A stretch of 64,000 nt of DNA, from assembly GCA_947475005.1 (NCBI GenBank), contig CANJLI010000002.1, positions 2,256 through 66,255 on the forward strand, written 5' to 3'. Below the pieces are notes generated by a model, which was not told the origin of the DNA, did not search any database, and saw nothing but the letters and a program-made list of their open reading frames with translations. The translations under genes and the position numbers were made by a program. Positions within the stretch are counted from its first letter, which is position 1. Every line of letters starts with the position of its first letter. Of the stretch, positions 26,859 to 59,954 are shown piece by piece. This DNA is from Deltaproteobacteria bacterium (GTDB taxonomy: Bacteria > Bdellovibrionota_B > Oligoflexia > Oligoflexales > Bog-1112).

Positions 26859-28595
26859 ATGAGGAAAAAGAGTCTACTTTTATTCTGGCTACTGGCTTGT
26901 AGTTTTTTTGCCAAGGCAGCTGCAAAAGATCAATTTAAGCGGCTAGTTGCGGATCAGCTTAGTTGCGATTTTTTGTTAAAAATAGATGCTCCAGACTATA
27001 AAACTGTTGAGCATTTGAAAAGAATCACCGCTACCTATCTCACACTCCCACCTGCAAGACGCTATGTTTTTCGCAGCTGTCTTTTCGAGAAAAAAGAATT
27101 ATTTGATGCCATTGACCAATGGTTTGATTCTCAATTTTCAGGGTATTACAAAGCTTCCGATCCCGAGGTAATAAAATTGATGGGTGAGTACGATGCACTC
27201 ATAACGAACACAACCGATCACAACCAAAACGCTGTGATTTTTATTGCCAATGATGACCACAACCAAGCCTTTCAACTCAAAAGTTTGGCAGGAAAACTTG
27301 TAAAATGGCGCCTCGCTGCAATGGCTTCCCATTATAATATCTTTATTTCCTCTAAAATAAAAAGCCAAATTGGGATGGCCAATACCTTTATCAGAACCTC
27401 TGAAGATCCTACTTTCAAAACAGGCTTTGACTTCGTAGAGATTCTCGCCCATGGAAACCACGAATGTATTGGCTTAGATGATGCCTACCCATTTGGGCGC
27501 ATGGAAGTCTATGCTCCCATGCAATCTACCTTAGCAGAATGGTTTCGGCATGGCTTACGTCAGAATGCAGAGGTTTTTTTCACATCTTGTATGCTGGGAA
27601 GGAAACTGACAGGCGGAGCCATGAACTTTCTCAATTCTTTCGCAAATCGATATACCAGACCTGATGTTAGCGTACGAGGTTCTACAAAATCTGTAATGAT
27701 CCTAAATGAAGATTGGACCATTCAGGATGAAAAAATCGTAATCAATCATTATATAGAGCATAAAAATAGCACTGAGACTGTTTTCAAAAACACCATAATC
27801 CGAAGCGAATCTCCTACGGCGAATTTGGCTCAATCAGAGAGCCATTATAAAAAAACCGAATTACAAAAAGAAAAAGAGGCAGATCCGGATGCATATGCAG
27901 GAAGGCTAAAAAAAGCCGTTACCCTTTTAGCAAAAGTAAGTTTACTCACAGCAAACAATGCTTACCTGAGCTCCCTCGACAAAAAAATCTGGGTGGCTTT
28001 CCCATCCGGGAATCCTCTGTTCGCGGCAGGTTCCCAAAAAGTAATCCGCACCACACCCGGTATGCTAGTAACAAAAGATGATTCTTTATTAGTTCCATTG
28101 AAATCATATTCTTTTTTACTCAACCTCCTTTTAGCCACTACGATCGAATCCGGTCTTTTTGGATTTGGCCTTGAAAAATATAGCAAAGAAACCGTGGAAG
28201 AAATTGCAAAACTCGGAAATCTTCGAATCTATGATCGGAGAGATCCACAGGAAAAAGCTGAGAAGGGAATCCGAATCATCTTTGGGTTACAAGAGTCCGA
28301 CCAACCGGTTCACCAAAGTTTACATGATATTTCCGATAAACTTCTGCTTGAAACCCTGCTTATTAACATCGTTTCGTATTTGAACTTTAACCTTGAAGAA
28401 TCCGAATATGCCTGGATGGTGGCTGGTCAATATGTAACGAGAGAGGGAGATCGCTTCGTTCCAGTGACTCTTTCAGGCCATCTTCCTCAAATTTATGCAG
28501 AATCAGACGAATTTTTCTCTCCCTTTTTATTAAACCCTTACGAGGTTGGAAACACTTTCAAAGAACAGTTTAAAAAACCGGCATTAAAAAAATAG
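26859..28595 (+). CDS. Hypothetical secreted protein with CHAT/caspase-like His-Cys pattern
   Basis: Signal peptide LLLFWLLACSFFAKAAA. FVEILAHG (His198, nt 27450-27452) and VFFTSCMLG (Cys244, nt 27588-27590). Visibly AT-richer than the flanks. Confidence 0.75.
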   Translation: MRKKSLLLFWLLACSFFAKAAAKDQFKRLVADQLSCDFLLKIDAPDYKTVEHLKRITATYLTLPPARRYVFRSCLFEKKELFDAIDQWFDSQFSGYYKASDPEVIKLMGEYDALITNTTDHNQNAVIFIANDDHNQAFQLKSLAGKLVKWRLAAMASHYNIFISSKIKSQIGMANTFIRTSEDPTFKTGFDFVEILAHGNHECIGLDDAYPFGRMEVYAPMQSTLAEWFRHGLRQNAEVFFTSCMLGRKLTGGAMNFLNSFANRYTRPDVSVRGSTKSVMILNEDWTIQDEKIVINHYIEHKNSTETVFKNTIIRSESPTANLAQSESHYKKTELQKEKEADPDAYAGRLKKAVTLLAKVSLLTANNAYLSSLDKKIWVAFPSGNPLFAAGSQKVIRTTPGMLVTKDDSLLVPLKSYSFLLNLLLATTIESGLFGFGLEKYSKETVEEIAKLGNLRIYDRRDPQEKAEKGIRIIFGLQESDQPVHQSLHDISDKLLLETLLINIVSYLNFNLEESEYAWMVAGQYVTREGDRFVPVTLSGHLPQIYAESDEFFSPFLLNPYEVGNTFKEQFKKPALKK

Positions 28596-41067: not shown

Positions 41068-41449
41068 ATCAAATGAAGATTTCTTTGGCGATATAAAGAA
41101 TGCCATTAAATCAAACAAAAGCCTCCTGCAAAAAAGTGATACCATCTATTTCGATGATTATAAAGGCTTTCAGGATTTCATGTTTCCTACCCGCTTTGAT
41201 GTGCTTGCTGCGATCCGGGCTTTTAAGCCAACTTCTATTTATTTCTTGGCAAAGTTATTGCAACGGCATTACCAAAGCGTTCTAAAAGACTGCAATGCCC
41301 TAGAGGTTGCTGGATTCATCCTCACGGAGAAAAAGACGGGCGAAAGAAACCAAACTGTACCCAGCCTTGCATTCGATTATGACACCATTATTGTTCACAA
41401 TCTGGAGATGGGAAAAATGAGCCACTCTTTACCATCAAAAGCGGCTTAA
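41042..41449 (+). CDS. Winged-HTH protein, putative antitoxin/regulator (HVO_A0114-like layout)
   Basis: N-terminal ..EDFFGDIKNAIK.., then ..RFDVLAAIRAFKPTSIYFLAKLLQRHYQSVLKDCNALEVAGFI.. (wHTH). 26-nt overlap with the upstream gene. Confidence 0.65.
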   Translation: MKPINIKFKSNEDFFGDIKNAIKSNKSLLQKSDTIYFDDYKGFQDFMFPTRFDVLAAIRAFKPTSIYFLAKLLQRHYQSVLKDCNALEVAGFILTEKKTGERNQTVPSLAFDYDTIIVHNLEMGKMSHSLPSKAA

Positions 41450-42177
41450 GACGCAATACCTTGCAGCAAACGGGCGTCTTCAAGCTGCTTTTTGCGGTAG
41501 TAGCGACTGAGGTGGCTGCGCAGGCGCTTGGCCTCCCCCAACTTGCGACCTCCATTTACCACCGGGAGGGTATTGCCATATTTTTCCACCAACCCCTCGA
41601 TAAATTGGAGTTTTGCATAGGCCCCTGGCCAGCTACGGTATTCCCTCTTCCAATCTACAGCCGGGTTGAGCCACACGGCAAAGGTTTCCGCAAAGTCCTC
41701 ATCCGGGTGGGCCTGAGCATAGCAATCGCGCAAGTTAGAGACAAAATCCGTACTGTGCTCCTCTATCTCGTAGAGGGAGGGCGTATACTTGCGGCTTGGG
41801 TTGCCAAACAGGGCCTGCCACTCACGCCCCTTCTTAATGGAGTAGGCGTGCTCAAAGGAGTGCCCCGCTTCATGACGCAGTAACTGCATGAATTCCTTGC
41901 GGGTATCCCCCTCTACCATACCCATCGTACGCTTCTCCAGCGCCATAAGCTTCGGATGTGCCAGATAAAAAGGGATAGAGATTGCAGGTACACCGGAAGG
42001 GGAAAACCACTCATCCCCTAAATAGACCTCGGGCCGAAAGAATCGCAGGCCTTTTCGCTGTAATTCTCGGTACAACTGGTTCACACAAGCTTGCAGCGGT
42101 GAGGTCTCCAGCTTGAGAGGCAACTCACAAATTCGTTTTTGTAACAGGGCAGTATAGGAAAGTCTGGCAATCGACAT
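41446..42177 (-). CDS. Putative zinc metallopeptidase (Peptidase_Mx-like)
   Basis: HEXXH in LRHEAGHSFEH and downstream DEDFAETFA. ~240 aa cytosolic protein. Confidence 0.75.
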   Translation of the reverse strand: MSIARLSYTALLQKRICELPLKLETSPLQACVNQLYRELQRKGLRFFRPEVYLGDEWFSPSGVPAISIPFYLAHPKLMALEKRTMGMVEGDTRKEFMQLLRHEAGHSFEHAYSIKKGREWQALFGNPSRKYTPSLYEIEEHSTDFVSNLRDCYAQAHPDEDFAETFAVWLNPAVDWKREYRSWPGAYAKLQFIEGLVEKYGNTLPVVNGGRKLGEAKRLRSHLSRYYRKKQLEDARLLQGIAS

Positions 42178-42417: not shown

Positions 42418-42648
42418 ATGAAAAAGACATATCCAACTAGAATCACAGCTGACTTAGGAAATCCACTGTTGATGCAAATGCTGAAATTAGAGGCCCAACA
42501 AAAAAATATCACCCTCAGAGAAGTGCTGGTCACAGCCCTCGAATGCTATTTTGGGCACCGTCTTGAGCAACAACTGATATACAAAGCCGCCCAAGACACT
42601 ATGCACGAATGGAAAGACCCCAAGGAGGATGCATATGACAAGCTCTGA
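42418..42648 (+). CDS. Ribbon-helix-helix antitoxin-like protein
   Basis: 76 aa. ..TRITADL..LL..LKLEAQQKNITLREVLVTALECYF is a CopG/RHH pattern. Overlaps the downstream MazF-like gene. Confidence 0.7.
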   Translation: MKKTYPTRITADLGNPLLMQMLKLEAQQKNITLREVLVTALECYFGHRLEQQLIYKAAQDTMHEWKDPKEDAYDKL

Positions 42649-43000
42649 TTTGTCTTCCATACCTGTCGGAGCAATTGTTTTGGTTCAATTTCCATTTTCA
42701 GATTTAACATCGCACAAAAAACGACCGGCCTTAGTGCTCTGCCATGTAGAGTTTTCTAAGACCATCCAACTAATTACTGTGGCCATGATCACAAGCAAAA
42801 TCGACACACATGGATTGCCTGGAGATGTCTACCTCGAAGATTGGCAGACATCAGGCCTTCTATTTCCAAGCCTCGTCCGGCTATCTAAATCTGTAACCCT
42901 TGAGACAGAGCTTATCCTTGGAATACGAGGTGTACTGACGAAGAAGGACCACGGGAAAGTGAGAGAACAATTCCAGATACTTTTTGCACCTTGGGTTTAG
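42629..43000 (+). CDS. MazF/PemK-family toxin (mRNA interferase-like)
   Basis: GAIVLVQFPFSDLTSHKKRPALVL is the PemK N-terminal signature. ~120 aa. Alternative ATG at 42635. Confidence 0.8.
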   Translation: MHMTSSDLSSIPVGAIVLVQFPFSDLTSHKKRPALVLCHVEFSKTIQLITVAMITSKIDTHGLPGDVYLEDWQTSGLLFPSLVRLSKSVTLETELILGIRGVLTKKDHGKVREQFQILFAPWV

Positions 43001-44106
43001 CGACAGTAGCCGTACTTGTTCACTCGCTCCACAATGGCACGCACCTGGTCCAGGGGAATAGCGGGAGCCACATGCCCCGAATGCCCATGCATAGTCTCCG
43101 CTGCGAACAAGGCATTGAGCACAGCCTCCTCCGTAGCCTCGATCACCGCTCGGTACAACGGATCGATGGCAGATTCCAGCATCACCTCCATTCGATAAGT
43201 CTTATCCTTGCTGTCACGAGGAATTACGTTGCCATTCGAGAATCCGATGATGATTTCGCCAGAGCCGTGGGCTGCAATGGAACCGGTACGACCGATCCCC
43301 AAAGCAGAGCGACGACACAATCGCATCACCTGATGGGAGGACATGGGTGCATCTGTGGCCACCACTGCAATAATGCTACCGTAGGTTTTTTTGCGACGAT
43401 GCTCATTGGGAAAAGTAGGCGCAAGTAGCATACCCATGGGAATGCCATCCACACGCAAATCTTCCACGATCCCAAAGTTGGACATCACCAATACTCCCAC
43501 CACATACCCCCCAGCTTCTTTTGGGATACGCCGAGAGGAGGTACCGATGCCTCCTTTAAAATCACAGGTGATCATGCCGGTACCGCCTCCGACACACCCT
43601 TCTACCACCGGCCCCGTTGCAGCAGAATCCAAGGCTTCGAAGACATGACGCTCTTGCACATGGTGCCCACTGCTGTCATTGAGCCACGAGTCATCACACT
43701 CTCCCACAACGGGAATCACTACATCTTGCACGGAACCGATGCCCGGGTATTTTTTCAGCATGTACTTAACCAACGACTCTGAACAGGTGCCAACGGACAT
43801 GGTATTGGTGAGCAAAATTGGTGTTTCAATCTGCCCCCACTCCATCACCTGGGTAAGCCCCGAAATCTCACCGGCTCCGTTCAACACGTAGCCAGAACCT
43901 ACTACACGATCCTCAAAAATGTTTCGGTTGTTCGGCAAAATTGCGGTGACACCGGTACGAATGGGACCCGTACCTGGACAAAGCTTGCCTGCCTCGCCTT
44001 GGATAATCGTCGAATGCCCCACTTGCACCCCAGGCACATCGGTAATGGCATTGTATTTGCCAGTAGGATACATACCGATGCGAATCCCTAAATCTCGGGC
44101 ACGCAC
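42997..44106 (-). CDS. DmpA/BapA-family (S58) aminopeptidase
   Basis: RARDLGIRIG..NAITDVPGVQVGH N-terminus. Self-processing Gly-Ser in ..KTYGSIIAVVATDAP. Start uncertain: GTG at 44106 is just below the G-module hairpin, while ATG at 44166 forms an ATGA overlap with the upstream stop but would translate the repeat. Confidence 0.82.
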   Translation of the reverse strand: MRARDLGIRIGMYPTGKYNAITDVPGVQVGHSTIIQGEAGKLCPGTGPIRTGVTAILPNNRNIFEDRVVGSGYVLNGAGEISGLTQVMEWGQIETPILLTNTMSVGTCSESLVKYMLKKYPGIGSVQDVVIPVVGECDDSWLNDSSGHHVQERHVFEALDSAATGPVVEGCVGGGTGMITCDFKGGIGTSSRRIPKEAGGYVVGVLVMSNFGIVEDLRVDGIPMGMLLAPTFPNEHRRKKTYGSIIAVVATDAPMSSHQVMRLCRRSALGIGRTGSIAAHGSGEIIIGFSNGNVIPRDSKDKTYRMEVMLESAIDPLYRAVIEATEEAVLNALFAAETMHGHSGHVAPAIPLDQVRAIVERVNKYGYCR

Positions 44107-44120
44107 ACGCTTAACAAAGT

Positions 44121-44149
44121 GGGGACACTCACCTTTGGTGGGTGTCCCC
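44121..44149. repeat. G-module palindromic repeat
   Basis: ggggacactcacctttggtgggtgtcccc between the ATP-grasp stop and the conserved DmpA N-terminus. Confidence 0.7.
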
Positions 44150-44162
44150 GAAGGCTTTTCAT

Positions 44163-45194
44163 TCATAGGGCTCTTTCTCCTGGAGAAATGTTGCAACGAG
44201 CCAGAGGAGCACCCGCTTCTGCTAGCCTACGCAAAGCGGGTGCAAGAATTTCGGCTAGCAATGCCTCATAGCGCATACCCTCTGCAGCTGCCATCACACT
44301 CAAATCTGAAAAATTCGGGACAATACCCGGCAGAGGATTGCACTCGATAAAATACACATCCCCCTTTGCATTCAATCGAAAGTCCATACGCGACACATCT
44401 CGACAGCCCAAGGCTGCAAATGCAGCACAAGCCGTGCGCTTAAGACGCTGCGCAAGCTCATCCGAGATCTGAGCAGGGACATCGAGGCGCACATCGGTTG
44501 CATCGATTTTACTCAAAAACGAATATACAGGAAACTTCTGTCCTCGGTTGGTAAAAACAATTTCCATAATGGGAAGTACACGAGGATTCGACTCCCCCAA
44601 CATCCCCACCGTGAACTCACGGCCCGGTAAAAACTCTTCTACCAACACCGCCTGATCGTATTTGGCAATATAGGCCTTCGCCCGTATCCGCAGATCCGCC
44701 TCATTCTCCACCACACTCGCAGGATGAATCCCCTTCGAGCTGCCTTCTGCAGATGGCTTCACCATAAGCGGATAGCAAATATCCGTCGGCACCGGCTCAT
44801 CGCCTGTGGCAAACGTAAAAAACTTAGCGGTCAGAATGCCCGCTTGGCTCACCACTTTTTTCGCAAGGGACTTGTCATGACAAATGGAGAGAGTAGCTGG
44901 ATCGGAACCGGAATAGGGAATACCCATGAGTTCTAACAATGCAGGAACCTGACTCTCCCGAGAGCGCCCTCGGGTCCCCTCAGCAATGTTAAAGACCACA
45001 TCCACCGAGGTGCAAGAAATTTTGCCTGGTAACGTTTCATCAGCCTCCAACTCCACCACTTCATGTCCGAGAGATTCAAGGGCCGACTTGATGGAAGCAA
45101 TGGTCGAAGGTCGATCATACTCCGCATGGCAGTCAACTTGGTTCTCTACCGAATTTTCTACACGCCGACAATTGAATGTGAGACCGAGTTTCAT
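44163..45194 (-). CDS. ATP-grasp ligase, D-alanine--D-alanine ligase-like family (not canonical Ddl)
   Basis: 343 aa. ..CHDKSLAKKVVSQAGILTAKF.., ..LMVKPSAEGSSKGI.., ..VLVEEFLPGREFTV.., ..RMDFRL..G.VYFIECNPLPG. The N-terminus differs from housekeeping Ddl. Confidence 0.82.
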   Translation of the reverse strand: MKLGLTFNCRRVENSVENQVDCHAEYDRPSTIASIKSALESLGHEVVELEADETLPGKISCTSVDVVFNIAEGTRGRSRESQVPALLELMGIPYSGSDPATLSICHDKSLAKKVVSQAGILTAKFFTFATGDEPVPTDICYPLMVKPSAEGSSKGIHPASVVENEADLRIRAKAYIAKYDQAVLVEEFLPGREFTVGMLGESNPRVLPIMEIVFTNRGQKFPVYSFLSKIDATDVRLDVPAQISDELAQRLKRTACAAFAALGCRDVSRMDFRLNAKGDVYFIECNPLPGIVPNFSDLSVMAAAEGMRYEALLAEILAPALRRLAEAGAPLARCNISPGERAL

Positions 45195-45206
45195 CGCTTG
45201 CCTCTC

Positions 45207-46625
45207 TTAGAGATGTAAGTGCGATAGAGCATTTTCAAACATGACATTCTGTGCAGCTGGATCCGACCACTGGGCCTGAACCTCAGGTTCCAATGTATGC
45301 AAAGGATCAAAATAGAAGAAATGTTTTCCAGGTTTCACGCTCGGCGCACTAAAAATACTGATCCCTGTGGGGCGATCATAATAATCATAAGACCACGCCA
45401 CACGCTTACCGCCTCCCCCGGGGGCATCCACAACAAACGTCGGCGTGTTAAATCCTGCAGTAACTCCCCGCAGCTGTTTTTCGAGTTGCAACGTTGTAGC
45501 CAAGGAAGTACGCAAGTCTTCCACCCCTTGTACCAAATCGTGTTGGTATACATAGTAGGGCTGAATGCTACAGGCGCCGAGTCGCTTGACCAACATCGAC
45601 ATCGCCTCGAAGGTATCGTTTACCCCTCGCAAGAGAACCGACTGGTTTCGCACCACGACCCCATTTTCTGCAAAGACCTTCAGGGCATCTCGAGTCACCC
45701 ACGTCATTTCCTGAGCCGAGTTAATGTGGGTATGAATAAACACTTGTTTGAAACGACTGCGCGCTTGATTCGCAACATTGATAACCGCCTGCGTCCACGC
45801 AGGGTCATAAAGGATGCGAGACGGATTTACCGCAAGACCCTTGGTGGCAATACGAATTCTTTTTACATGTTCAATATTGAGAAGGGCTTCCCCGATATAT
45901 TGCACATGAGGAGGGGCTACGTTGTAAAAATCCCCCCCGCTCAAGACCACATCTTCCACTTCGGGATGTTCGGCAATATAAGCAAAAGCCTTCTTCCATG
46001 CGGCAGGCGTCGCCTCCAGCTTATATTTTACAACCTGTTGGGTATCTTGCCCAATAGCATAACTTCTCGTACAAAACCGGCAATATACAGGACAGGTAGA
46101 CTGGGGCAAAAAGAGAACACGGTCATAGTAGCGATGCACCAAACCAGGCACGGGAGAATCCGCTTTTTCCCCTAAGGAGTCCAAGGTAAGCATAGGGTGG
46201 TCCACATGCAAGCGAGAGCCCAAGGGTAAAAATTGCGTGCGCACTGGGCACGTATAGGGATTTTTCCAATCCATACGAGACAAGGTATAGGGGGTAATCT
46301 GCACCGACATGGGAGCTCTTGCCAGCCCCAAGAGGACATCTTGTGCAAACGCATCTCCCGCATTTTCCCTCACGAAGTCGAGCAGCTTTTGGGTAGCAAT
46401 AGGCGTGCTGTTGGACAGGGTATTTTTAATCTGAAATCGGTAGGACAGGAATTCATCGGCAGAAAGTTGCCCATAGGCAGGGAGAGCTTGCCAGAACAAT
46501 CCCTCCTCGAAGCTGCGATGGGCATTTCCATCTAAGTGAGCCACAGGTGAGGGTTGCACACGATTGTCATACGCCAAACGACTGGGAGGTTCTTCTTCCC
46601 CCACCTTCAAGAAAGCGGTAACCAT
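45207..46625 (-). CDS. KamA-family radical SAM 2,3-aminomutase (lysine 2,3-aminomutase-like)
   Basis: CPVYCRFC cluster motif, SGGD, QSVLLRGVND, PYYVYQHDL, FVVDAPGGGGK. 472 aa. Confidence 0.88.
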   Translation of the reverse strand: MVTAFLKVGEEEPPSRLAYDNRVQPSPVAHLDGNAHRSFEEGLFWQALPAYGQLSADEFLSYRFQIKNTLSNSTPIATQKLLDFVRENAGDAFAQDVLLGLARAPMSVQITPYTLSRMDWKNPYTCPVRTQFLPLGSRLHVDHPMLTLDSLGEKADSPVPGLVHRYYDRVLFLPQSTCPVYCRFCTRSYAIGQDTQQVVKYKLEATPAAWKKAFAYIAEHPEVEDVVLSGGDFYNVAPPHVQYIGEALLNIEHVKRIRIATKGLAVNPSRILYDPAWTQAVINVANQARSRFKQVFIHTHINSAQEMTWVTRDALKVFAENGVVVRNQSVLLRGVNDTFEAMSMLVKRLGACSIQPYYVYQHDLVQGVEDLRTSLATTLQLEKQLRGVTAGFNTPTFVVDAPGGGGKRVAWSYDYYDRPTGISIFSAPSVKPGKHFFYFDPLHTLEPEVQAQWSDPAAQNVMFENALSHLHL

Positions 46626-46737
46626 GATGACATCCTTTTTATTTGGATACTATACGATGAGTGTAATCATGGTTTTGAAATAAGGGAAATTTTTCTTATT
46701 TATTTAAGGGGGGGGATGAAATCGGGGGCACCCACCA

Positions 46738-46916
46738 GTCATCCCAAGGCTGCGTAGCAGCCGTATGGGATCTCGATAAAAATGCAGGGATCCCATACGG
46801 CCCCTTCGGGACCTTGGGATGACGCAACGGTCCAAAAGGGACCTTGGGATGACGCAACGGTCCAAAAGGGACCTTGGGATGACCGGAACGGTCCCAAAGG
46901 GACCTTGGGATGACGG
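46738..46916. repeat. P module with right-arm unit repeated in tandem
   Basis: Full P at 46738-46823. Then gcaacggtccaaaagggaccttgggatgac twice (46824, 46854) and a variant (46884-46916). Confidence 0.85.
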
Positions 46917-46926
46917 AAAAAGAATA

Positions 46927-46952
46927 GGGTGACACACATACGGGTGTCACCC
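46927..46952 (-). terminator. Intrinsic terminator of the GDH gene
   Basis: gggtgacac/gtgtcaccc stem. On the minus strand it is followed by tattcttttt, 5 nt after the stop codon. Confidence 0.6.
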
Positions 46953-46956
46953 TTCC

Positions 46957-49923
46957 CTAAGCCAAAAGAGCAAACAGAGTCAGATCCTTCGCAGCACTTT
47001 TTTTCAAAATAGCCACAATTTCCTCACGATTACCTAAGGCCGACTCTTCCACTTGTTGGATCAACTGATCGGCAAATCGATCTCGTTGCATGTAAGTCAA
47101 CACCGTCTGATACTGCTCCTTCTTGTCGATGCTTTCAAGCCACCCTAAGCCCTCTCGATACACAATATAGCTCGCAATCGACGCAGCTAAAATGGCTACA
47201 ATATGAGAGTGCGGTAGAGTAAAGAGACGCGCCTCATATTTCTCTCGCAACACAGGGGGGCAATACAATACCAACAGTCTTCGAAATAGCTCTCCCTCAA
47301 GCAGTTTTTCTCGCTCTTGCGTGAAGGCCTCCAGCAACAAATCCGTCACTTGGTTGATTTCCTCGGAAATTTCTTTGGATAACTGCACCAAGGTTTTACG
47401 CCCCCCACCCTGTTTATATTCCGAAAATAATAGATTGGCTTCGAGTGCTGCCTTTTCCCGCAAGCGCTCGAGAACTTCCTTCACATATTGATCTTTAATC
47501 GCATAAAATTCTTCACTGGTGAGTAGCAAAGAAGCGATGATCTCAAAGGAAGAACAGATCACTCCCGTCTTATTGGCACTCGAATCCTTAATGATCAGTA
47601 TGCCCTGCTCTTGCAATTTTTCCCGAGCCTGGGTGGTAAAGAAAATATTGGCACCTTCGATGATGGCCTTGCAAGTCGGGCGCCCCTCCACCAAAAATTC
47701 AGCCCAATTTACATCATTCACTGTATAAGGCCTTCCACCAGCGGGAATAAAAATATCCGCATCTACTGTGGCATGCAGGTGATTGCGCAATTGAATATTT
47801 TCAGGCGTATCCATTTGAATCACAAAAGCTCGTTGGGAACGGCTGAGTTTCTCCTTGCGGAAACATCCAATGGATTTCTCCTCCCGCACCAAGGTTAACA
47901 GCTCACTCCAATCCAGCCCCTCCGGATCATAGGCTGCCCCCATGCCATCCGATATGGCAACCACACGCGCATTCTCTCCATACTCTCGATGCAAGATATT
48001 GAGCTCATTTCCTGCAACATCTCCATCGGGACCTCCCGTCATTTTGATCGTGAACGGTTTTTTTCGAGGTTCAAAGTCCAAGTACTGCAACACATGATCC
48101 ACAAACACATGGAGCCCCTCTGAGGTCACCCCATACTCCTTGTGGTTGATGCCATCTCCCGGTTTAGAGGACATGAATGCCTTTGCATAGCGATAGTTCC
48201 TACGCTCTGCTTGCTCGGGTACCCATACGATCAAATCGTTGGTCATGTTTTCATCGGGCCCCAAGAACAGAATCTCTTCTTCTTTGTAGTAACTAATCAG
48301 CCCCGATTTTCCTTCGTGTGCCTCATCCTCGGACACCAAGAGATCGAGGAGTGCATTGATGGCCCCTCGAACTGCACGGGCTTTATTGCCTTGGGGTTTT
48401 AACACCAAGACTCCCTTTGAACCGCCTTCAGGGATGTCCTTGTTTTTCATCTGTTGGGCTTGGCTTAACCCATAAGCCTCATCAAACAAGCCCGCGATGG
48501 CACATCCGTGCTCCACCATATTTTTGGGCATCACTACACGCAAGCCCCCTCGTGCCACATCTCTCCAACGAATGTGGAAAAATCGATAATCACGACCTGT
48601 GATGAAAAAAATCCCAAACGGTCGCTCCGGATAATAGGTCACATCCAACACACTAGGATCCAGACGAAAAGCCAGCCCCGTTTTGGTGGGCAAAAAATAA
48701 TTGGTTTTAAGAAGATGATCGATAAATTTTACCCCCTCTTGAAAGATTCGCTTCTCGATGGGGTCATTACATTTTCCGATCTGTTGAACCAGTACCTCTC
48801 GTCTCTTTTCGTATCCATCCCCTTGCCGTTCTTTTTCATAGAGAGGATCGAACTTATAGCGAAAGAGCTCCACCAAACTTTCGGTGTACGCCTGATTTTG
48901 TAAAAAAGTAGATTCAATTTTATAATTGGAATAATAGTAGGTATTCACCTTCCCCAATAAAATATGCACCCACGAAGCAAGAGAACGAATCAGGTTAGCA
49001 GCCCCAATGGAAAATCGGTATGGGAGTTTGGTAAACTGTGCATAGCCATCTGAATCCACCCATGCCAACGTGCGCAGGGATTTAATCAATCGACGCAGGG
49101 ACGTGCTGGTTTCAATAGCCCCCCCCCAATCCTTGCTATGTAACGTAAAATTCATTACGTTGATGGGTTCTGCATACCCTTCTTGAAATTGCACCATAAA
49201 GGATCGCAACAAATCCACATTGTATTGAGGGAAAAGATGGAAAATGCTCTCCAGCACATCTGTCATGCGGATCCCTTTCAGACCCAGCATAAGCTCCACC
49301 GTGGAAGAACTCCCATCAATTTCAACAAAGGTATGAGCACCCTCATGGGTCAACATGTGATGACACATACGAAAGATGGCCTGAATACGAACCGGTGTCG
49401 CATAGGTAACGAAATCATGATCCAAATGCTGAAAGTACTGCTCGATTTCTTCGGTTAAAGTTGGATACTCTGCCCGTAAGAGTGCCTTTGCCTCTGCGAT
49501 TTTATTTTCTACATGAGAGTTGGAAAGATCCAGCTTGCTGTACGTTTTTCCCCAGAAATTAGCGAGGAACAGTTGTTTATCGGTAGAAAAATATAACGCC
49601 CCCATCTTGATATCTATCGAGGACAGCTTACTTGCCACATTCAACAAAATCGTAGGTTCTTCACCTGGGCCAATGTAGGTAACCTTTGTTTGCTCAGGAT
49701 CCCACAGCTCAACGGTTTGCTTGGCTTCAAAAATAAGCCCCGTTAAAATACTCGATAAGTGCCGCACTTTTTCGATACGCGGCGTCGTTTGGTAGTAGAT
49801 ATCAGGCATGCTGGTGAAAAACCAAGGCGTCAACATCGCAATGCGGTCATGGATCTGCATCCGTACCGTTTCCGAAATATCGTCAATATACGAACCTAAG
49901 TTTGCATCGAATTTTTCATCCAT
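46957..49923 (-). CDS. NAD-specific glutamate dehydrogenase, large (~110 kDa) class
   Basis: 988 aa. ARGGLRVV, EGGSKGVL, GPDENM, MTGGPDGDVAGN (dinucleotide fold). Layout matches large bacterial GDHs. Confidence 0.78.
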   Translation of the reverse strand: MDEKFDANLGSYIDDISETVRMQIHDRIAMLTPWFFTSMPDIYYQTTPRIEKVRHLSSILTGLIFEAKQTVELWDPEQTKVTYIGPGEEPTILLNVASKLSSIDIKMGALYFSTDKQLFLANFWGKTYSKLDLSNSHVENKIAEAKALLRAEYPTLTEEIEQYFQHLDHDFVTYATPVRIQAIFRMCHHMLTHEGAHTFVEIDGSSSTVELMLGLKGIRMTDVLESIFHLFPQYNVDLLRSFMVQFQEGYAEPINVMNFTLHSKDWGGAIETSTSLRRLIKSLRTLAWVDSDGYAQFTKLPYRFSIGAANLIRSLASWVHILLGKVNTYYYSNYKIESTFLQNQAYTESLVELFRYKFDPLYEKERQGDGYEKRREVLVQQIGKCNDPIEKRIFQEGVKFIDHLLKTNYFLPTKTGLAFRLDPSVLDVTYYPERPFGIFFITGRDYRFFHIRWRDVARGGLRVVMPKNMVEHGCAIAGLFDEAYGLSQAQQMKNKDIPEGGSKGVLVLKPQGNKARAVRGAINALLDLLVSEDEAHEGKSGLISYYKEEEILFLGPDENMTNDLIVWVPEQAERRNYRYAKAFMSSKPGDGINHKEYGVTSEGLHVFVDHVLQYLDFEPRKKPFTIKMTGGPDGDVAGNELNILHREYGENARVVAISDGMGAAYDPEGLDWSELLTLVREEKSIGCFRKEKLSRSQRAFVIQMDTPENIQLRNHLHATVDADIFIPAGGRPYTVNDVNWAEFLVEGRPTCKAIIEGANIFFTTQAREKLQEQGILIIKDSSANKTGVICSSFEIIASLLLTSEEFYAIKDQYVKEVLERLREKAALEANLLFSEYKQGGGRKTLVQLSKEISEEINQVTDLLLEAFTQEREKLLEGELFRRLLVLYCPPVLREKYEARLFTLPHSHIVAILAASIASYIVYREGLGWLESIDKKEQYQTVLTYMQRDRFADQLIQQVEESALGNREEIVAILKKSAAKDLTLFALLA

Positions 49924-51933: not shown

Positions 51934-52047
51934 AGAAATAGAAAAAAATAAAAAATAACCCGCCAGACAGGTAATTTTTTTTCCTTTCTTTTGTTCACCA
52001 TACATTTATAATTGGCCAAACGGTCAAAATTATAAATGGAGTGCGTC

Positions 52048-53934
52048 ATGGCGAGTTGCAGCCCACAAAATCTGGGGAAATTGCTACTCTGTGGTCTTCT
52101 GGCAAGTGCCTGCGGAGAGAATCCAACGAGTACCCTGCAGCATGATGTCCGCCAACCTACCCGCGTTACGACGGATTGGAATTGGGTCACCGTGTCTCGC
52201 GATGATTTCATGAGTCATTCTCTCAATATGGGCCCTGTACCGGGTCGCTTTCCCATTGCAGACCAATTCAAAGCGCTAGAGGAACGGGCCACATTTTGGG
52301 TCAATTTGCTCGACAAGAAACTGCGCGCTCAATACCCCCAGAAAATGAAGCAAGTCCCAGTACCTCAAGTGCAAGTAATTACAGATGACTCCCCCAATGC
52401 GTTTATTACAGCTGGATTTAGCTGCTATGAAGTGCCCCTTCAACTTGCAGACTCAGGTACCACGGTGGGAAAAGTGCTTTGGAGGCCCATAGATGGGGGC
52501 GGGGAATTCCTACACTGGCCAGACGAATTTGCTTGTCTACCCGCAGAGCCCAGCTCTCTTTTTGCAGCCATCCAAGTATTTAATGCTGCAGAAGGCAGCT
52601 GTAAACTTCATGTAACAAATGGAGCGATAGCCCTTGAAGGCAAATGCGACACCGGCTCCAGCTTACAAGGCGTAGGGAATGCGAAATCCATCGTGCTGCC
52701 CCGCACAGCAAACTGGGTCACCATTCATGCAGGATTGTTTCCGTTTATGCCAACAGAGGATGCTTTCGTCGGCGTTCTCATGCATGAGCTGACCCATTAC
52801 TATCGCTCCCACATGACTCAACTGCCGGGTGAATATAATTTTTTCTACCAACGAGGAGAAGAAAATGAAAATCACCGCCCAGAACCTCGCCCAGATCTAT
52901 TGGCTGAAGGTCAAAAAGCCATTATCGCCAGTCATATTTTGGGCCAGGAGCGCATGCCCCTCCTCCCAGGGCAAGAACTCGCCCCTGAGCTTTATTTAGC
53001 CGCCGGTTCTCTTGCAGAGGCACAATGCGCGGGTAATCCAAATTGTGCCAGCAGTTGCCAGGAAATCGTAAAACTGGCTACCACTAGAGAGTTTATCGTA
53101 AAGATGGGTCTATATCCCTTCTCTCCTGCAGATCAAAGCACCTATACGCGCTTTGAAGCCACCATGATGCGCTGCTTGCGTACAATCCCTGCAGCAGGTG
53201 CATACGACAGCCTTAAAGAGTTCATACTGGCCCCCACATGGATTCCATTTCGCAAGAAGCTATCTCCCGATACCCTGGCCATGCTCGGTGCGATACTGGG
53301 GCGCGTGATCCCAAGATTGCCAGCGACGCTTCCGCGACCGTCCTATCCCAGCGCAAAAGAAATCACGATGGATATCAGTGCCATTTTGAACCTACAGATC
53401 AAGATGGCGATGGACATCCTCACGGAAGCTCATGAAAAAAAGATTGGCTTCTACACCGACGAACAAGAGGCAGATGAAGCATCTATCGAATGGCTATCCC
53501 TACTCGGCCTGAAACCAAGCGCAGGTGTAGATACCTATCTCACATTGGCCGGAAACTCTACAGAGGCGAGCTTCGGAGGGTTCATCTGGGGCGGCAAAAC
53601 CTGTCAGGATCTATACCGCAATCACTGGAGAGATCAGAACGGCAATGCAGTGATTGTTCCCATAGGCAATTTTACAGACACCCATCACAGCTCTTGCTTC
53701 CGAGCTTACAATGCGGATTTGGAGATTCAAGCGCACCAATATCCGTTGACACCCTCTGAATCTGTTGTCGCTATTGGCTTATCTTGGGAAGAAATCCAAA
53801 GAATCGCCACTCGTGCCACAAGCCCGCTACGCAAGGGCACTGAAGAAAAGATGCCCCCCGCGGTTAGCGCTGCAAAAAAGCGGGTAATCGCCCTGAACAA
53901 ACACTGGCACGAATGCCCATGGGCACCTAAGTAA
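52048..53934 (+). CDS. Putative zinc metalloprotease lipoprotein (HEXXH)
   Basis: ATG at 52048 with ggag 6 nt upstream. Lipobox LLASAC. VLMHELTHYY (HEXXH) and distal EQEADEASIEWL recall the M48 family but with a very long insert. Confidence 0.72.
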   Translation: MASCSPQNLGKLLLCGLLASACGENPTSTLQHDVRQPTRVTTDWNWVTVSRDDFMSHSLNMGPVPGRFPIADQFKALEERATFWVNLLDKKLRAQYPQKMKQVPVPQVQVITDDSPNAFITAGFSCYEVPLQLADSGTTVGKVLWRPIDGGGEFLHWPDEFACLPAEPSSLFAAIQVFNAAEGSCKLHVTNGAIALEGKCDTGSSLQGVGNAKSIVLPRTANWVTIHAGLFPFMPTEDAFVGVLMHELTHYYRSHMTQLPGEYNFFYQRGEENENHRPEPRPDLLAEGQKAIIASHILGQERMPLLPGQELAPELYLAAGSLAEAQCAGNPNCASSCQEIVKLATTREFIVKMGLYPFSPADQSTYTRFEATMMRCLRTIPAAGAYDSLKEFILAPTWIPFRKKLSPDTLAMLGAILGRVIPRLPATLPRPSYPSAKEITMDISAILNLQIKMAMDILTEAHEKKIGFYTDEQEADEASIEWLSLLGLKPSAGVDTYLTLAGNSTEASFGGFIWGGKTCQDLYRNHWRDQNGNAVIVPIGNFTDTHHSSCFRAYNADLEIQAHQYPLTPSESVVAIGLSWEEIQRIATRATSPLRKGTEEKMPPAVSAAKKRVIALNKHWHECPWAPK

Positions 53935-56804: not shown

Positions 56805-59800
56805 CTAAGAAGGCTCGTTCCATCTATTCGCAAGGTTTCCAACCTCTCTATCGTAGGTAAAAAACCGAATGATCAAGGCAGCAAAATAGGTCCCTGCCCA
56901 CGTAGGATCTTCGTACTCTTTCAACCACGAAAATTTGAGTCCCCAACATTTGGAAGGAGACGAATACTGCATCGCAGCAGACACCCTCTCTTCACGAGCA
57001 GCATCCACCTCGTACAACGTACGATTTCCATACTCAAATAAAGTCTCAATGTGCGGTATCAAAGTCGAACGAAGCCCATAGGTTTTCGTAAGGGTCTTTC
57101 GCGCAATAAACCCACCATTTACTGGGTCTGCAGTCAGGTTATTCTCCAAGCCAAGACCCAATGTTAGAGTGGTATCAAATACCGTAGGTGGCGTTAAGGT
57201 GTAAATCGACTCAACAGCTGTATGGGAATAAAGATTGAAACGACTGCGCAGTGCTAGAGTCCAATTCCTCCATGCACTAGACACGTTGCTTCGTAACTCA
57301 GACCAGGGTTGCGGCAACGCATTCTCCGGTATTTGAGGATCTTTCTGCAATTCTTTTCGCTGTCTGGCTTTCACCCAGTCATAATCGATATCAGCCTGTG
57401 CACTGAGAGGCGCTTGTTGATTCGAACGCTGCAGTGAATATCGATTGATATTCCACTCACCGATTTTTGGATTATACAAAGATCGCGTATTATGAATGGA
57501 CTCATCAAGACCCAACGTTAACTCTTGTTGCGCTTGCTCACGCACCGAAAGAGAGGCAGCGCCTGCCTTCGATACAGATTTGGGTGTAAGGTTCCAACCC
57601 TCATCAAATAAAAACCAATCGTGATTGGTGGATAAAATAATTTTCTGATGGGGAAACATAAAATCTTGTTCAGGCAAATAATCGGTTCCAATATTGTTTT
57701 TTAAATCACTGGGGAAATAAGTCAAATAGGGATCACGTGGCTTGAGATTGCCATTTGCATCCGGTGTATATTCACTGGCTATTTCCCCATATTGCCCACG
57801 TCGAACCACGAAGGGACGCATGGAAAGCGTTACCTTCCAGGTCATGCGATGCTCCAACCAAGACTGGACGTCAGGATTTTCCCCTGCAAGCAAGGGCATT
57901 TTCCCCTCCATGGGCAACGAAAGATTGAGTCCAAATCGAACCGTACGCATGGAGGAGAGAGAGCTACCTTCCCGATTCAAATCAGGCTCTTTTGCAGGAG
58001 AAGCGGCGGAGGCAGTTTTGTACTCCTGCAGCTGACTGGAAATCGAACGCAACTCACCCACAGAAAAAGCATCCAAGAGAAAAATTTTATCGGTCAAAAT
58101 AGGGGTCATCAACTGCAAGCGAAAACGACGCCATCCTCCGTTGGAAAGCGCAAAAGTTTGGCTCCCAGGAGGCGCATTCTGCTGAAAAGCAGGGTCCGAG
58201 GCATACGAAAGTTGACGCATCGTAAAATCAGCCTGCCCATAGATGGGATGAGGCAAATACGAACGACCGAAGGAGAAAAAACGCGATTGCAACTTTACCG
58301 CAAGTGGATTTTGGTAGCCAGAAAATCGAGAGTTAAGCAACATCTGATCGCCCCAATGGCTCCCAACCCCGAGATAAAAATTTTCTGCATCGAGATGGGA
58401 CTGCACATGAACTTTAGAAAAAGTTTGAGGCAAAAGTGGATCAAATACATCGAGTAAGTTGGTGAAATACAAATCTTGGGTATATCGATGGTCCGTCACC
58501 ACATTCCCTTGACTCATAAAAGACCATCGAGGGGCAAGAAAGGTTTGCCCTTTCCACTGGACCTTACCACGCCCCCCTCCGGAATATCCCTGCAAAGACT
58601 CTAGGACAGATGCAATACAAGCGTCCGGATCCGAACTGTCCAAACAATTTTTGCCTTGTGGCATCGAAGCCCACCAGCCTGGGTCCTGAATCGTGGGGGC
58701 TTGAAGATTTAAATTGGCACGTTCGGTGGGTGTCATGGCATCATAACGGGTTTTTGCGGTTTTAAAACCAGCTTCATACTGATAGCTCACCGTTTGCCTC
58801 GTGGCTTTTTGGCCGAGCTGGAGACGATCTTGAAGACCTTCTACCTGCGTCTCCCACCCCGAGTAAGTGCCCCTCTCATGTCGATACTGTGCCCCCAATC
58901 GAAATCCTCTTTTTTCGATATAATCGGTAGTAATCGTCGCATCCTGATCTTTACCGATATCCAAAAAGAGAGATTCTGAAAAAATATTTCCATTCAAGCT
59001 GTCATAAGTAATCGAGGGTAGTAAAAAACCGGATTGCCGTTCGCTTTTTGCCGGTATCCGCAAATAGGGCAGATATAAAACTGGAACCCCTTTAATTTCC
59101 AAGACCGGATTATACAAATCCGCATACCCCTCGACTTGAGCATTGATTTTCTCCGCTTGAAAAGCCCAAGCAGGGCTTTCATCAGCCGCACAAAAACAAG
59201 GCGTTAGGTATCCATTGGTGGTTCTCACCTCATATTGGTGAATGCGCTCGATGACTTTTCCCTGCAAACGAAAATATCCCAAATGCAACACATTCTGATT
59301 GTTCATCAATGCTTTTTCTTGGCTATCCTTCCAGAACTGACGCCGTCGTTGCAGCTGCTTGTAGCGTTCAGATTGAATTCCAAAGTGAGCAATATTTTCT
59401 TGCCCCTTGATATGAGCTTCCTCTCGCAACAAAATTTCGTACTGTGCCTCTCGTTCTTTTTTTTCGGAAGAGGAAAGATTCGGATACTGTTTCAAATATT
59501 GTGCACGAGCCGCATTTTTTTTGCCCTCAATTTCCTGCAACCATCTTTGCCGGTTGACTTCAAATTCAATCTCCTGAGGACTAACCCCCAACACAGATTC
59601 TACAATTTTTTTGACTTCGGCTTCTGAGTTAGCTGTAAGAAGAGCTTTGGTGAGGCTAAAATCTCCCGTATCCAAATCGTAGTGCAGTTCATCTCCGGTA
59701 AAAACCTGCTGGGAACTAATCAACAGGATGTTACCTCTTGCCTCGAAGGTTTTTTTGATCCGATCGAGCTCAATATGATCCGCAAGGATCAGAGTGCCTG

Positions 59801-59954
59801 CTGCAATTGCTACCACGTCCCCTTCAAAAACTTGCCGATCTCCTTTTCGATCAAAGCCTACCCGTTGCGCATCAAAAAAGACCTCCAATTCTTTTGGAAC
59901 AGTCTGTCCTTGACAAAGCGCTGCAGATAGAAAAAATAGAACGATGAGGCGCAC
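56805..59954 (-). CDS. lptD: LPS-assembly outer-membrane protein LptD
   Basis: 1049 aa. Signal peptide, N-terminal OstA-like beta-jellyroll (..FEGDVVAIAAGTLILADHIELD..), long beta-barrel region. Confidence 0.85.
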   Translation of the reverse strand: MRLIVLFFLSAALCQGQTVPKELEVFFDAQRVGFDRKGDRQVFEGDVVAIAAGTLILADHIELDRIKKTFEARGNILLISSQQVFTGDELHYDLDTGDFSLTKALLTANSEAEVKKIVESVLGVSPQEIEFEVNRQRWLQEIEGKKNAARAQYLKQYPNLSSSEKKEREAQYEILLREEAHIKGQENIAHFGIQSERYKQLQRRRQFWKDSQEKALMNNQNVLHLGYFRLQGKVIERIHQYEVRTTNGYLTPCFCAADESPAWAFQAEKINAQVEGYADLYNPVLEIKGVPVLYLPYLRIPAKSERQSGFLLPSITYDSLNGNIFSESLFLDIGKDQDATITTDYIEKRGFRLGAQYRHERGTYSGWETQVEGLQDRLQLGQKATRQTVSYQYEAGFKTAKTRYDAMTPTERANLNLQAPTIQDPGWWASMPQGKNCLDSSDPDACIASVLESLQGYSGGGRGKVQWKGQTFLAPRWSFMSQGNVVTDHRYTQDLYFTNLLDVFDPLLPQTFSKVHVQSHLDAENFYLGVGSHWGDQMLLNSRFSGYQNPLAVKLQSRFFSFGRSYLPHPIYGQADFTMRQLSYASDPAFQQNAPPGSQTFALSNGGWRRFRLQLMTPILTDKIFLLDAFSVGELRSISSQLQEYKTASAASPAKEPDLNREGSSLSSMRTVRFGLNLSLPMEGKMPLLAGENPDVQSWLEHRMTWKVTLSMRPFVVRRGQYGEIASEYTPDANGNLKPRDPYLTYFPSDLKNNIGTDYLPEQDFMFPHQKIILSTNHDWFLFDEGWNLTPKSVSKAGAASLSVREQAQQELTLGLDESIHNTRSLYNPKIGEWNINRYSLQRSNQQAPLSAQADIDYDWVKARQRKELQKDPQIPENALPQPWSELRSNVSSAWRNWTLALRSRFNLYSHTAVESIYTLTPPTVFDTTLTLGLGLENNLTADPVNGGFIARKTLTKTYGLRSTLIPHIETLFEYGNRTLYEVDAAREERVSAAMQYSSPSKCWGLKFSWLKEYEDPTWAGTYFAALIIRFFTYDREVGNLANRWNEPS

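Follow-up and report, generated by a model that had tools for sequence, protein, structure and literature searches.

To our knowledge, beta-lysine is used as a building block in a few settings only, namely as an archaeal osmolyte, in the modification of elongation factor P (EF-P), in streptothricin-type antibiotics and in epsilon-poly-beta-lysine, and each of the coupling enzymes that we know of is an acetyltransferase, a tRNA-synthetase paralogue or an enzyme of the nonribosomal peptide synthetase (NRPS) type. For epsilon-poly-beta-lysine, clusters combining KamA with a Pls-family synthetase were reportedly described by Yamanaka in 2022. Elsewhere, ligases that join a beta-amino acid or a polyamine, such as carnosine synthase and glutathionylspermidine synthetase, are found alongside a hydrolase of the same bond, and relatives in the S58 peptidase family, as the names given to BapA and DmpA by their structure depositors indicate, hydrolyse N-terminal beta- and D-aminoacyl peptides. 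Here we examine an operon for a KamA-like aminomutase, an ATP-grasp ligase and an S58 aminopeptidase, located in a 64,000-nt stretch of contig CANJLI010000002.1 from a Deltaproteobacteria bacterium (the window, to which all coordinates refer unless another locus is named). The original prediction knew of no KamA/ATP-grasp/DmpA trio, and likewise no description of the three genes, or of a fused ligase-S58 pair, was found in the literature searched. The trio is most likely a beta-amino-acid peptide pathway that employs an ATP-grasp ligase; on balance we favour the view that KamA, ATP-grasp ligation and S58 removal act in succession to make and trim a small cationic peptide containing beta-lysine.

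All three genes lie on the reverse strand. The first (46625..45207) encodes a 472-aa KamA-family radical S-adenosylmethionine (SAM)/pyridoxal phosphate (PLP) 2,3-aminomutase matched by TIGR00238, the second (45194..44163) a 343-aa Ddl-like ATP-grasp amide ligase matched by Dala_Dala_lig_C, and the third (44166..42997) a 389-aa N-terminal-nucleophile aminopeptidase of the S58 (DmpA/BapA) type matched by Peptidase_S58. The KamA stop codon is followed by a spacer of exactly 12 nt, containing AGAGAGG, before the ligase start, while the S58 ATG at 44166 (MNEKPSG...) has AGGAG upstream and overlaps the ligase TGA by four bases as ATGA. The mechanical open reading frame (ORF) call gave an alternative in-frame start for S58, a TTG at 44196; the 389-aa form that begins at the ATG is an entry in the public protein collection, and ATG 44166 is most likely the start. 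A Shine-Dalgarno-like AAGGA motif precedes the KamA ATG, and no terminator was found inside the three-gene unit. The KamA-like, ligase and S58 genes are one translationally coupled operon. This bears out the tightly packed, co-directional arrangement first reported for the three genes, in which the junction given as 0 nt is the four-base ATGA overlap, and the family assignments and motifs quoted at that time were all recovered from NCBIfam, Pfam and the ORF translations. As judged from their NCBIfam and Pfam scores, none of the three proteins is a textbook member of its family.

The first protein carries the KamA-like motifs CPVYCRFC, QSVLLRGVND, YQHDL and VVDAPGGGGK, and the only NCBIfam model of the KamA type that it passed was the "KamA family" subfamily model TIGR00238 (241 bits, cut-off 199). 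It fell below the cut-off of every equivalog, scoring 252 of the 525 bits set for AblA (TIGR03820), 201 of 600 for Arg-2,3-aminomutase, 193 of 650 for Glu-2,3-aminomutase (TIGR04368) and 173 of 369 for EpmB (TIGR03821). When aligned with the lysine 2,3-aminomutase (LAM) of C. subterminale (2A5H, 200 bits), the CxxxCxxC motif was kept, and R187, D363 (YQHD), D400 (VVDAPGGGGK) and K407 corresponded to Arg134, Asp293, Asp330 and the PLP lysine Lys337, respectively, all four being invariant across the KamA clade of the window. We take Arg134 to be the Arg that binds the carboxylate, and Asp293 and Asp330 to be the residues that bind the epsilon-amino group of lysine and are replaced in glutamate 2,3-aminomutase. 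The mapping of the acidic residues in YQHDL and VVDAPGGGGK onto this Asp pair, made earlier from the letters alone, was correct by the alignment to 2A5H. Other features set the protein apart. The equivalent of the Zn-ligand Cys268 is a Thr, LAM_C was matched over 24 of its 127 positions, about 100 residues at the N-terminus and a tail of about 60 residues at the C-terminus are peculiar to the protein, the clade signature "HD[LM]" stands in place of the "CDL" of canonical LAMs, and identity to the latter is about 36-44%. An identity as glutamate 2,3-aminomutase was rejected on the score of 193 of 650 bits and the retention of both Asp residues. Grouping with EpmB, proposed at the outset as a way in which the pathway might fail, was not observed either (173 bits against 369), and a role in EF-P modification was rejected on this low score together with the lack of efp in the window by tblastn; the EF-P modifier gene epmA was also not found nearby in the 64 kb. 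From its conserved residues and from the genomic contexts of its clade, described below, the KamA-like enzyme is predicted to convert L-lysine to beta-lysine.

The second protein matched Pfam Dala_Dala_lig_C with 133 bits, in agreement with its original assignment to the ATP-grasp ligases of the D-Ala-D-Ala ligase family, but remained below the cut-off of all 48 Ddl/Van models in NCBIfam (best NF002378, 185 against 243). Its best match among solved structures was DdlA (3I12, 118 bits), with VanA at 116 bits. Equivalents of the ATP, Mg and catalytic residues K97, K144, K215, R255, D257, E270 and N272 (DdlB numbering) were kept; at the D-Ala site, H63 is replaced by E, Y216 by I and L282 by D, E68 is replaced by R, and the N-terminal GGxSxE motif of Ddl is replaced by AE[YF]D. 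The ligase was then used to scan metagenome contigs, and 80 loci were re-screened by tblastn. Its relatives nearly always correspond to the second module (M2) in a fusion of two ATP-grasp modules that is about 700 aa long. The first (M1) was present upstream in 64 of the 65 loci that had upstream sequence, and the identity of the window ligase is 52-58% to M2 as against 33-38% to M1 of these loci. The H63 to E replacement is invariant in both modules, and the L282 to D replacement, within "[WF]SDL", is invariant in M2 only. Whether the gene might be a housekeeping ddl had been raised as a possible objection. With its scores under the cut-offs, the replacement of His63, Tyr216 and Leu282, and orthologues that are the second module of fused proteins, the ligase does not qualify as a true Ddl.

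The third protein scored 378 bits against Peptidase_S58 (cut-off 23.9) and matched end to end the solved structures of P. horikoshii 2DRH (332 bits, the closest), BapA 3N2W (253 bits) and DmpA 1B65 (242 bits). The Gly-Ser self-cleavage site is kept at G263|S264 in "TYG|SIIAVVATDAP", as are the Ser and Glu of GSGE, and thus the alignment to the BapA and DmpA sites agrees with the DmpA/BapA-type processing site that was noted at first. In the family-invariant GECDDSW motif the equivalent of BapA Glu133 is kept and L135 (BapA numbering) is replaced by D. The acidic substitutions, which by sequence alignment fall at substrate-site positions of the ligase and the S58 protein, would suit a cationic substrate such as lysine or beta-lysine. 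Since no signal peptide is visible in the S58 protein it is probably cytosolic, and as no exporter adjoins the trio in the window either, both synthesis and hydrolysis would take place in the cytosol; this fits a turned-over metabolite, such as a solute, a nitrogen store or a buffer, better than a secreted antibiotic.

We propose the following sequence of reactions. In the first step the KamA-like enzyme would use [4Fe-4S]/SAM/PLP chemistry to turn L-lysine into beta-lysine. In the second, the ligase would activate a carboxylate as the acyl phosphate and join it to an amine, yielding a beta-lysyl peptide or isopeptide; the partner could be beta-lysine itself or another basic amino acid, and the product a dipeptide, or a short oligomer if the enzyme is iterative. 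In the third, the self-processed S58 hydrolase, in the cytosol, would take off the N-terminal beta-aminoacyl residue, which may serve to turn the compound over, to limit its length or to recover lysine nitrogen. The compound itself may be a compatible solute, a storage compound or a signal, the three roles that were suggested at the outset.

The same enzymes could be arranged differently. S58 enzymes also catalyse aminolysis and peptide synthesis, for example of carnosine, and they share their fold with ornithine acetyltransferase, so that the S58 protein might be biosynthetic, acting as an acyl-enzyme transpeptidase that passes on or oligomerises the beta-lysyl unit. Alternatively, since ATP-grasp enzymes such as RimK are generally known to modify proteins, the ligase might beta-lysylate a protein in an EF-P- or RimK-like manner and leave the S58 enzyme to trim it. 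No acceptor protein or precursor gene is conserved beside the pair and neither efp nor epmA is nearby, while the substrates known for the Ddl-like subfamily are small molecules, and we judge these arrangements to be improbable.

A second alternative places the genes in the cell envelope, with the ligase making a D-aminoacyl or beta-lysyl dipeptide of an unusual kind, for use in peptidoglycan or in the recycling of murein peptides, and the DmpA-like enzyme acting as a D-aminopeptidase on wall peptides. The closest solved relatives are indeed Ddl/VanA ligases and depositions named "D-aminopeptidase" (2DRH, 5TZB), at one locus (L175) the genes neighbour a Mur ligase and a fusion of S66 LD-carboxypeptidase and beta-lactamase, and no other ddl-like gene and no second ATP-grasp gene of the ligase's type was found in the 64-kb window. 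Nonetheless, the ligase falls below every Ddl cut-off and has lost His63, Tyr216 and Leu282; its typical form is a fused two-module protein amid unrelated housekeeping genes, with a murein context in 1 of about 90 loci; and Stigmatella, Anaeromyxobacter and Archangium, in which it occurs, are free-living myxobacteria that are expected to have an ordinary ddl. A role of this kind is therefore highly improbable.

The prediction of a beta-lysine peptide pathway had been tied to whether the three genes keep together in other genomes. The trio was found to recur in the same order on independent contigs with differing flanks (L008, L010, L178/L095 and L007, the last cut after the ligase), the KamA proteins being 74-92% identical. 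In L008 (ligase 83% identical by tblastn) the order is that of the window: NAD-glutamate dehydrogenase (GDH), KamA, ligase, S58, Peptidase_Mx and the type II secretion genes T2SS-E/F. In L010 the trio follows a PTPS gene and precedes ArgR and an ABC importer of the Lys/Arg/Orn type, and in L178/L095 (KamA 75%, ligase 67%) it lies between a divergent LOG-family gene and a NuoB-like and an EamA gene on the other strand. Two loci carry a part of the arrangement, L007 (KamA 74%) with KamA and ligase up to the contig end and L005 (KamA 64%) with KamA followed by a fused two-module ligase. Since the trio keeps together amid varying flanks, we regard it as a functional unit. Besides the clade of the window, a second, canonical clade of LAM was found beside the same ligase and peptidase families, in L131 and L129, as described below.

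Beyond this lineage, the ligase and the S58 gene form a unit of their own. A same-strand S58 gene was present within 2.5 kb in 31 of the 40 ligase loci with at least 2.5 kb of downstream sequence, at a median distance of about 260 nt, and three more had one farther away; these S58 partners are 58-69% identical to that of the window. The M2 modules have a median pairwise identity of 72% and a minimum of 51%, and the loci range in GC from 0.43 to 0.74. A typical locus (L122) reads Sua5, DUF1015, HemB, M1M2 (731 aa), S58 (453 aa) and an RsmB-like gene. Among the strongest matches of the ligase the source names are mainly of Myxococcota (Stigmatella, Anaeromyxobacter, Archangium), along with Bdellovibrionota and Elusimicrobia, and the members of the pair are annotated as "D-alanine--D-alanine ligase" and "D-aminopeptidase". 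In the window an M2-type ligase and a same-strand S58 gene are present, M1 is absent and its upstream place is taken by KamA. The core conserved in evolution is thus the ATP-grasp(x2)-S58 pair, which is widespread and uncharacterised. KamA is a recurrent accessory rather than an obligatory part, since the pair mostly occurs without an adjacent KamA and genes of the KamA clade are usually found at a distance from it. The three-gene unit of the original prediction therefore stands for the lineage of the window, in which the trio is conserved, and does not extend to the wider family, in which the conserved unit is the ligase(x2)-S58 pair, mostly without KamA.

Some loci of the ligase family depart from the common layout. 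In L177 an ABC exporter follows S58. L012 (9256..16542), from Myxococcales bacterium 68-20, holds a variant cluster that has neither S58 nor KamA. Its M2-like ligase (57% identical) is accompanied by genes for a GNAT, a GT1 glycosyltransferase, another ATP-grasp protein, a methyltransferase, an unknown protein and a MatE exporter, and the whole has the appearance of a biosynthetic cluster for a small molecule with the ligase family at its centre. L175 (7564..15863) comprises a single-module ligase, a TANGO2-family gene, a 144-aa ORF, S58, the S66 fusion and the Mur ligase; no other locus of the family showed a murein-recycling-like context.

Aminomutases were found beside the pair in other lineages as well. 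In L131 (GC 0.69) a LAM of the canonical type, with YQCD and a C-terminus like that of the C. subterminale enzyme, is separated by about 180 nt from the single M2-type ligase downstream of it. In L129 an AblA-type LAM (515 bits for a 282-aa fragment, with a full LAM_C) converges on the M1M2 gene and directly adjoins its 3' end; 3 kb farther along, on the LAM strand, is an S58 gene (69% identical). In L044 a KamA gene of the window clade is located 7.5 kb from an M1M2-S58 pair. ORF calling was noisy in high-GC loci; filtering by GC content at third codon positions (GC3) helped with L129 and L044 and did not help with the Eremiobacterota loci. In a neighbour-joining tree M1 and M2 formed separate clades, and the M2 modules linked to an aminomutase fell in at least three places (the lineage of the window, L129 with L131, and L044). 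Lysine 2,3-aminomutases of two clades have thus been recruited independently beside the ligase family in at least three lineages.

A scan of species genomes with a generic KamA pattern, in which the window's own lineage was not among the matches listed, showed how the KamA clade is distributed. Among those matches the clade ("HD[LM]", 43-57% identical over the full length) was present in at least about 55 species genomes, and its carriers include Myxococcota, Eremiobacterota/Vulcanimicrobiota, Latescibacterota, Chthoniobacter flavus, Thermithiobacillus tepidarius and Bacteriovoracaceae. Clustering of six-frame ORFs at 63 loci gave no universal neighbour of the clade, and the neighbours that emerged were lineage-specific, namely L-erythro-3,5-diaminohexanoate dehydrogenase (Kdd) at 8 loci, an AsnC-type regulator at 11 and a Pls-type NRPS at 4; an M24 peptidase is another neighbour. 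In Eremiobacterota/Vulcanimicrobiota the KamA-clade gene lies 48 nt downstream of a Kdd equivalog (248 bits, cut-off 200), a context seen in L025 (8980..10007) and at 7 other loci. These Kdd-KamA loci may represent a shortened or different catabolic route for beta-lysine. The closest KamA relatives outside the trio (58-59% identical, in L004 and L006), together with L066, adjoin synthetases of the Pls/PosA family (578-583 bits, cut-off 423). These synthetases are single-module proteins of 1334-1410 aa (L004 3901..7929, L006 1324..5328, L066 2821..7050), and L006 additionally has a phosphopantetheinyl transferase. A lysine 2,3-aminomutase beside a Pls homologue is the arrangement reported for epsilon-poly-beta-lysine (PMC10522769). 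The three loci are candidate poly-beta-lysine-type clusters outside the actinomycetes, and the Kdd and Pls-type contexts of the KamA clade all point to beta-lysine as its putative product. Genes of the LOG family ("Lysine_decarbox", PF03641) were also seen near KamA-clade genes, in L178 (15..2123, reverse strand), in L025 (13004..13975, forward strand) and in a 6-locus cluster; this proximity may be coincidental.

Several observations weigh against a beta-lysine peptide. About 75 of the 80 ligase loci have no aminomutase within 8 kb, and of the about 55 genomes among the matches listed, 1 has a ligase or S58 gene no more than 10 kb from its KamA-clade gene (54 do not); with most ligase-S58 loci and KamA-clade genomes unpaired, the pair may in general act on something other than beta-lysine. 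Because the lineage of the window is without the M1 module that nearly all relatives have, its product may differ from theirs. The pattern with which aminomutase loci were retrieved includes the second Asp, so the conservation of that residue is partly built in, and the ligase pocket was mapped by sequence alignment only, onto an E. coli DdlB reference sequence. Furthermore, no recognisable KamDE, Kce or Kal genes were found near the Kdd-neighbour loci, which makes the Kdd context supportive and not conclusive.

These counts could also be accommodated if the pair makes and hydrolyses some alpha- or D-amino-acid peptide (e.g. of Lys, Orn, Arg or D-Ala) with no intrinsic link to beta-lysine. KamA would then lie nearby through a shared lysine pool or by genomic accident, and would serve lysine catabolism or a product made elsewhere. 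In addition to the loci that have no aminomutase, this explanation draws on a KamA clade that usually stands alone or with Kdd, Pls-type NRPS or M24 peptidase genes, and on pocket residues of the ligase and S58 that are identical in KamA-linked and unlinked members. On the other hand, the genes in the lineage of the window are translationally coupled and move together while their flanks vary, no KamDE, Kdd or Kce was found in the window, and two clades of aminomutase were recruited to the same ligase family in separate lineages, which is hard to explain without a shared metabolite. We therefore hold a general peptide module of this sort to be rather unlikely, and retain the beta-lysine peptide pathway for the trio. 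Whether the same can be extended to the pair as a whole is more doubtful. It is a tentative possibility, one that we would not call probable, that the pair is a widespread and hitherto unrecognised way, independent of NRPS, of making cationic (iso)peptides or oligomers with beta-lysine in Myxococcota and Bdellovibrionota, a soluble counterpart of Pls with its own beta-aminopeptidase that receives beta-lysine from an adjacent or a distal KamA. Both phyla include many predatory bacteria.

Upstream of the operon lies the gene for a large bacterial-type NAD-glutamate dehydrogenase of 988 aa (46957..49923, reverse strand; Bac_GDH_CD and ELFV_dehydrog matches). It was said in the original prediction to be set off from the trio by a terminator and repeats, and both a hairpin and a tandem repeat were located in between. 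Sequence scans of the intergenic region (46626..46956, reverse strand) revealed hairpins, the tandem repeat and an AT-rich leader with the AAGGA motif. A strong terminator-like hairpin (46953..46926) directly follows the GDH gene, a 30-bp tandem repeat of 3.6 copies with 94% matches occupies 46808..46915 (unit GGGACCTTGGGATGACGCAACGGTCCAAAA), and a second long hairpin is found at about 46743..46818. The region may be a repeat element or a regulatory leader. GDH was rejected as a member of the system, as it is upstream of the trio in the window and in L008 and absent from that position in L010 (PTPS) and L178 (divergent LOG-family gene), with the terminator-like hairpin in between. When the whole window was searched with Rfam at the gathering threshold only a tRNA was matched, and a permissive Rfam scan of 46500..47100 returned sub-threshold hairpin-type matches, with no family reaching threshold. 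A riboswitch or other known RNA upstream of KamA was rejected on these scans of the window and the leader.

On the other side of the operon a MazEF-like pair on the forward strand, consisting of a 76-aa antitoxin-like ORF (42418..42648) and a PemK/MazF gene (42629..43000; PemK_toxin, 47.8 bits), lies between the S58 and Peptidase_Mx genes. The pair runs convergently to S58, with an overlap of 4 nt at the S58 stop codon; it is not at this position in L008, L010 or L178, and it is an insertion outside the system. Peptidase_Mx (PF15887, 40 bits), a putative zinc metallopeptidase at 41446..42177 on the reverse strand, is also downstream of the trio in L008 (7058..7786) and L010 (7770..8501) despite the differing insertions that precede it, MazEF in the window and ArgR with the ABC importer in L010. 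It was rejected as a core member, since only the closest relatives keep it and neither L178 nor any of the 80 ligase loci has it, although it may have a lineage-specific functional tie to the trio. Five large ORFs of the window (453-1049 aa; 4626..5987, 13449..15029, 26859..28595, 52036..53934 and 56805..59954) had no Pfam match at E<=1e-5, and its ClpA is 66-67% identical to the nearest named proteins from metagenome-assembled genomes (MAGs) of Oligoflexales/Bdellovibrionota, both of which fit a poorly sampled lineage. By the ClpA match, the host is probably a bacterium of the Bdellovibrionota/Oligoflexia type.

If the beta-lysine peptide pathway is correct, an ATP-grasp ligase dedicated to beta-lysine and working with a hydrolase of the beta-aminopeptidase type would be a new enzymatic route, probably to a new small cationic metabolite. 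It would also provide a natural substrate and a physiological role for the S58 "beta-peptidyl aminopeptidases", and a function for a fused two-module Ddl-like family that occurs commonly in metagenomes from soil and freshwater and now carries the annotation D-alanine--D-alanine ligase. Since both families are present in cultured organisms, the KamA clade in Lujinxingia litoralis, Chthoniobacter flavus and Thermithiobacillus tepidarius and the ligase family in Stigmatella aurantiaca, the proposal is directly testable.

Compared with the systems described to date, the locus is not an EpmB/EpmA, AblA/AblB or Pls-type cluster, and its ligase is not a bona fide Ddl. Like the trio, EpmB/EpmA and AblA/AblB, which makes N-epsilon-acetyl-beta-lysine, start with a KamA-family enzyme that makes beta-lysine; here, no efp or epmA was found in the window and no GNAT gene beside the operon. 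A lysine fermentation operon or a Pls-type synthetase in the window was rejected as well, tblastn having found homologues of neither Kdd nor Pls, and the downstream fermentation genes KamDE and Kce were equally absent from the 64 kb. With the clostridial LAM (2A5H) the first enzyme has in common CxxxCxxC, the PLP Lys, the presumed carboxylate-binding Arg and both Asp residues, and it passed TIGR00238, whereas it has no Cys268, almost no LAM_C, its own termini, "HD[LM]" and an AblA score of 252 against 525. With Ddl/VanA the ligase shares the fold, the C-terminal domain and the catalytic residues, and yet it falls below the cut-offs for Ddl, VanA and VanG. The S58 protein shares the cleavage site, GSGE and the Glu133 equivalent with BapA/DmpA, and differs by GECDDSW, the lack of a signal peptide and a ligase partner; BapA is only the second-best of its solved matches, the closest being the uncharacterised 2DRH. 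As in the KamA and Pls clusters for epsilon-poly-beta-lysine, an aminomutase would feed an adjacent amide-bond-forming enzyme to give a cationic (iso)peptide, as proposed here, but there the enzyme is a membrane-bound NRPS-like synthetase, and in the window it is a soluble ATP-grasp ligase with a dedicated S58 hydrolase. The logic of a synthetase paired with a hydrolase is found, by analogy only, in carnosine synthase, an ATP-grasp enzyme that joins beta-alanine and histidine, with its beta-aminopeptidase or carnosinase, and, again in logic only, in glutathionylspermidine synthetase/amidase, where a ligase and a hydrolase act on the same bond, as the ligase and the S58 enzyme of the window are proposed to do.

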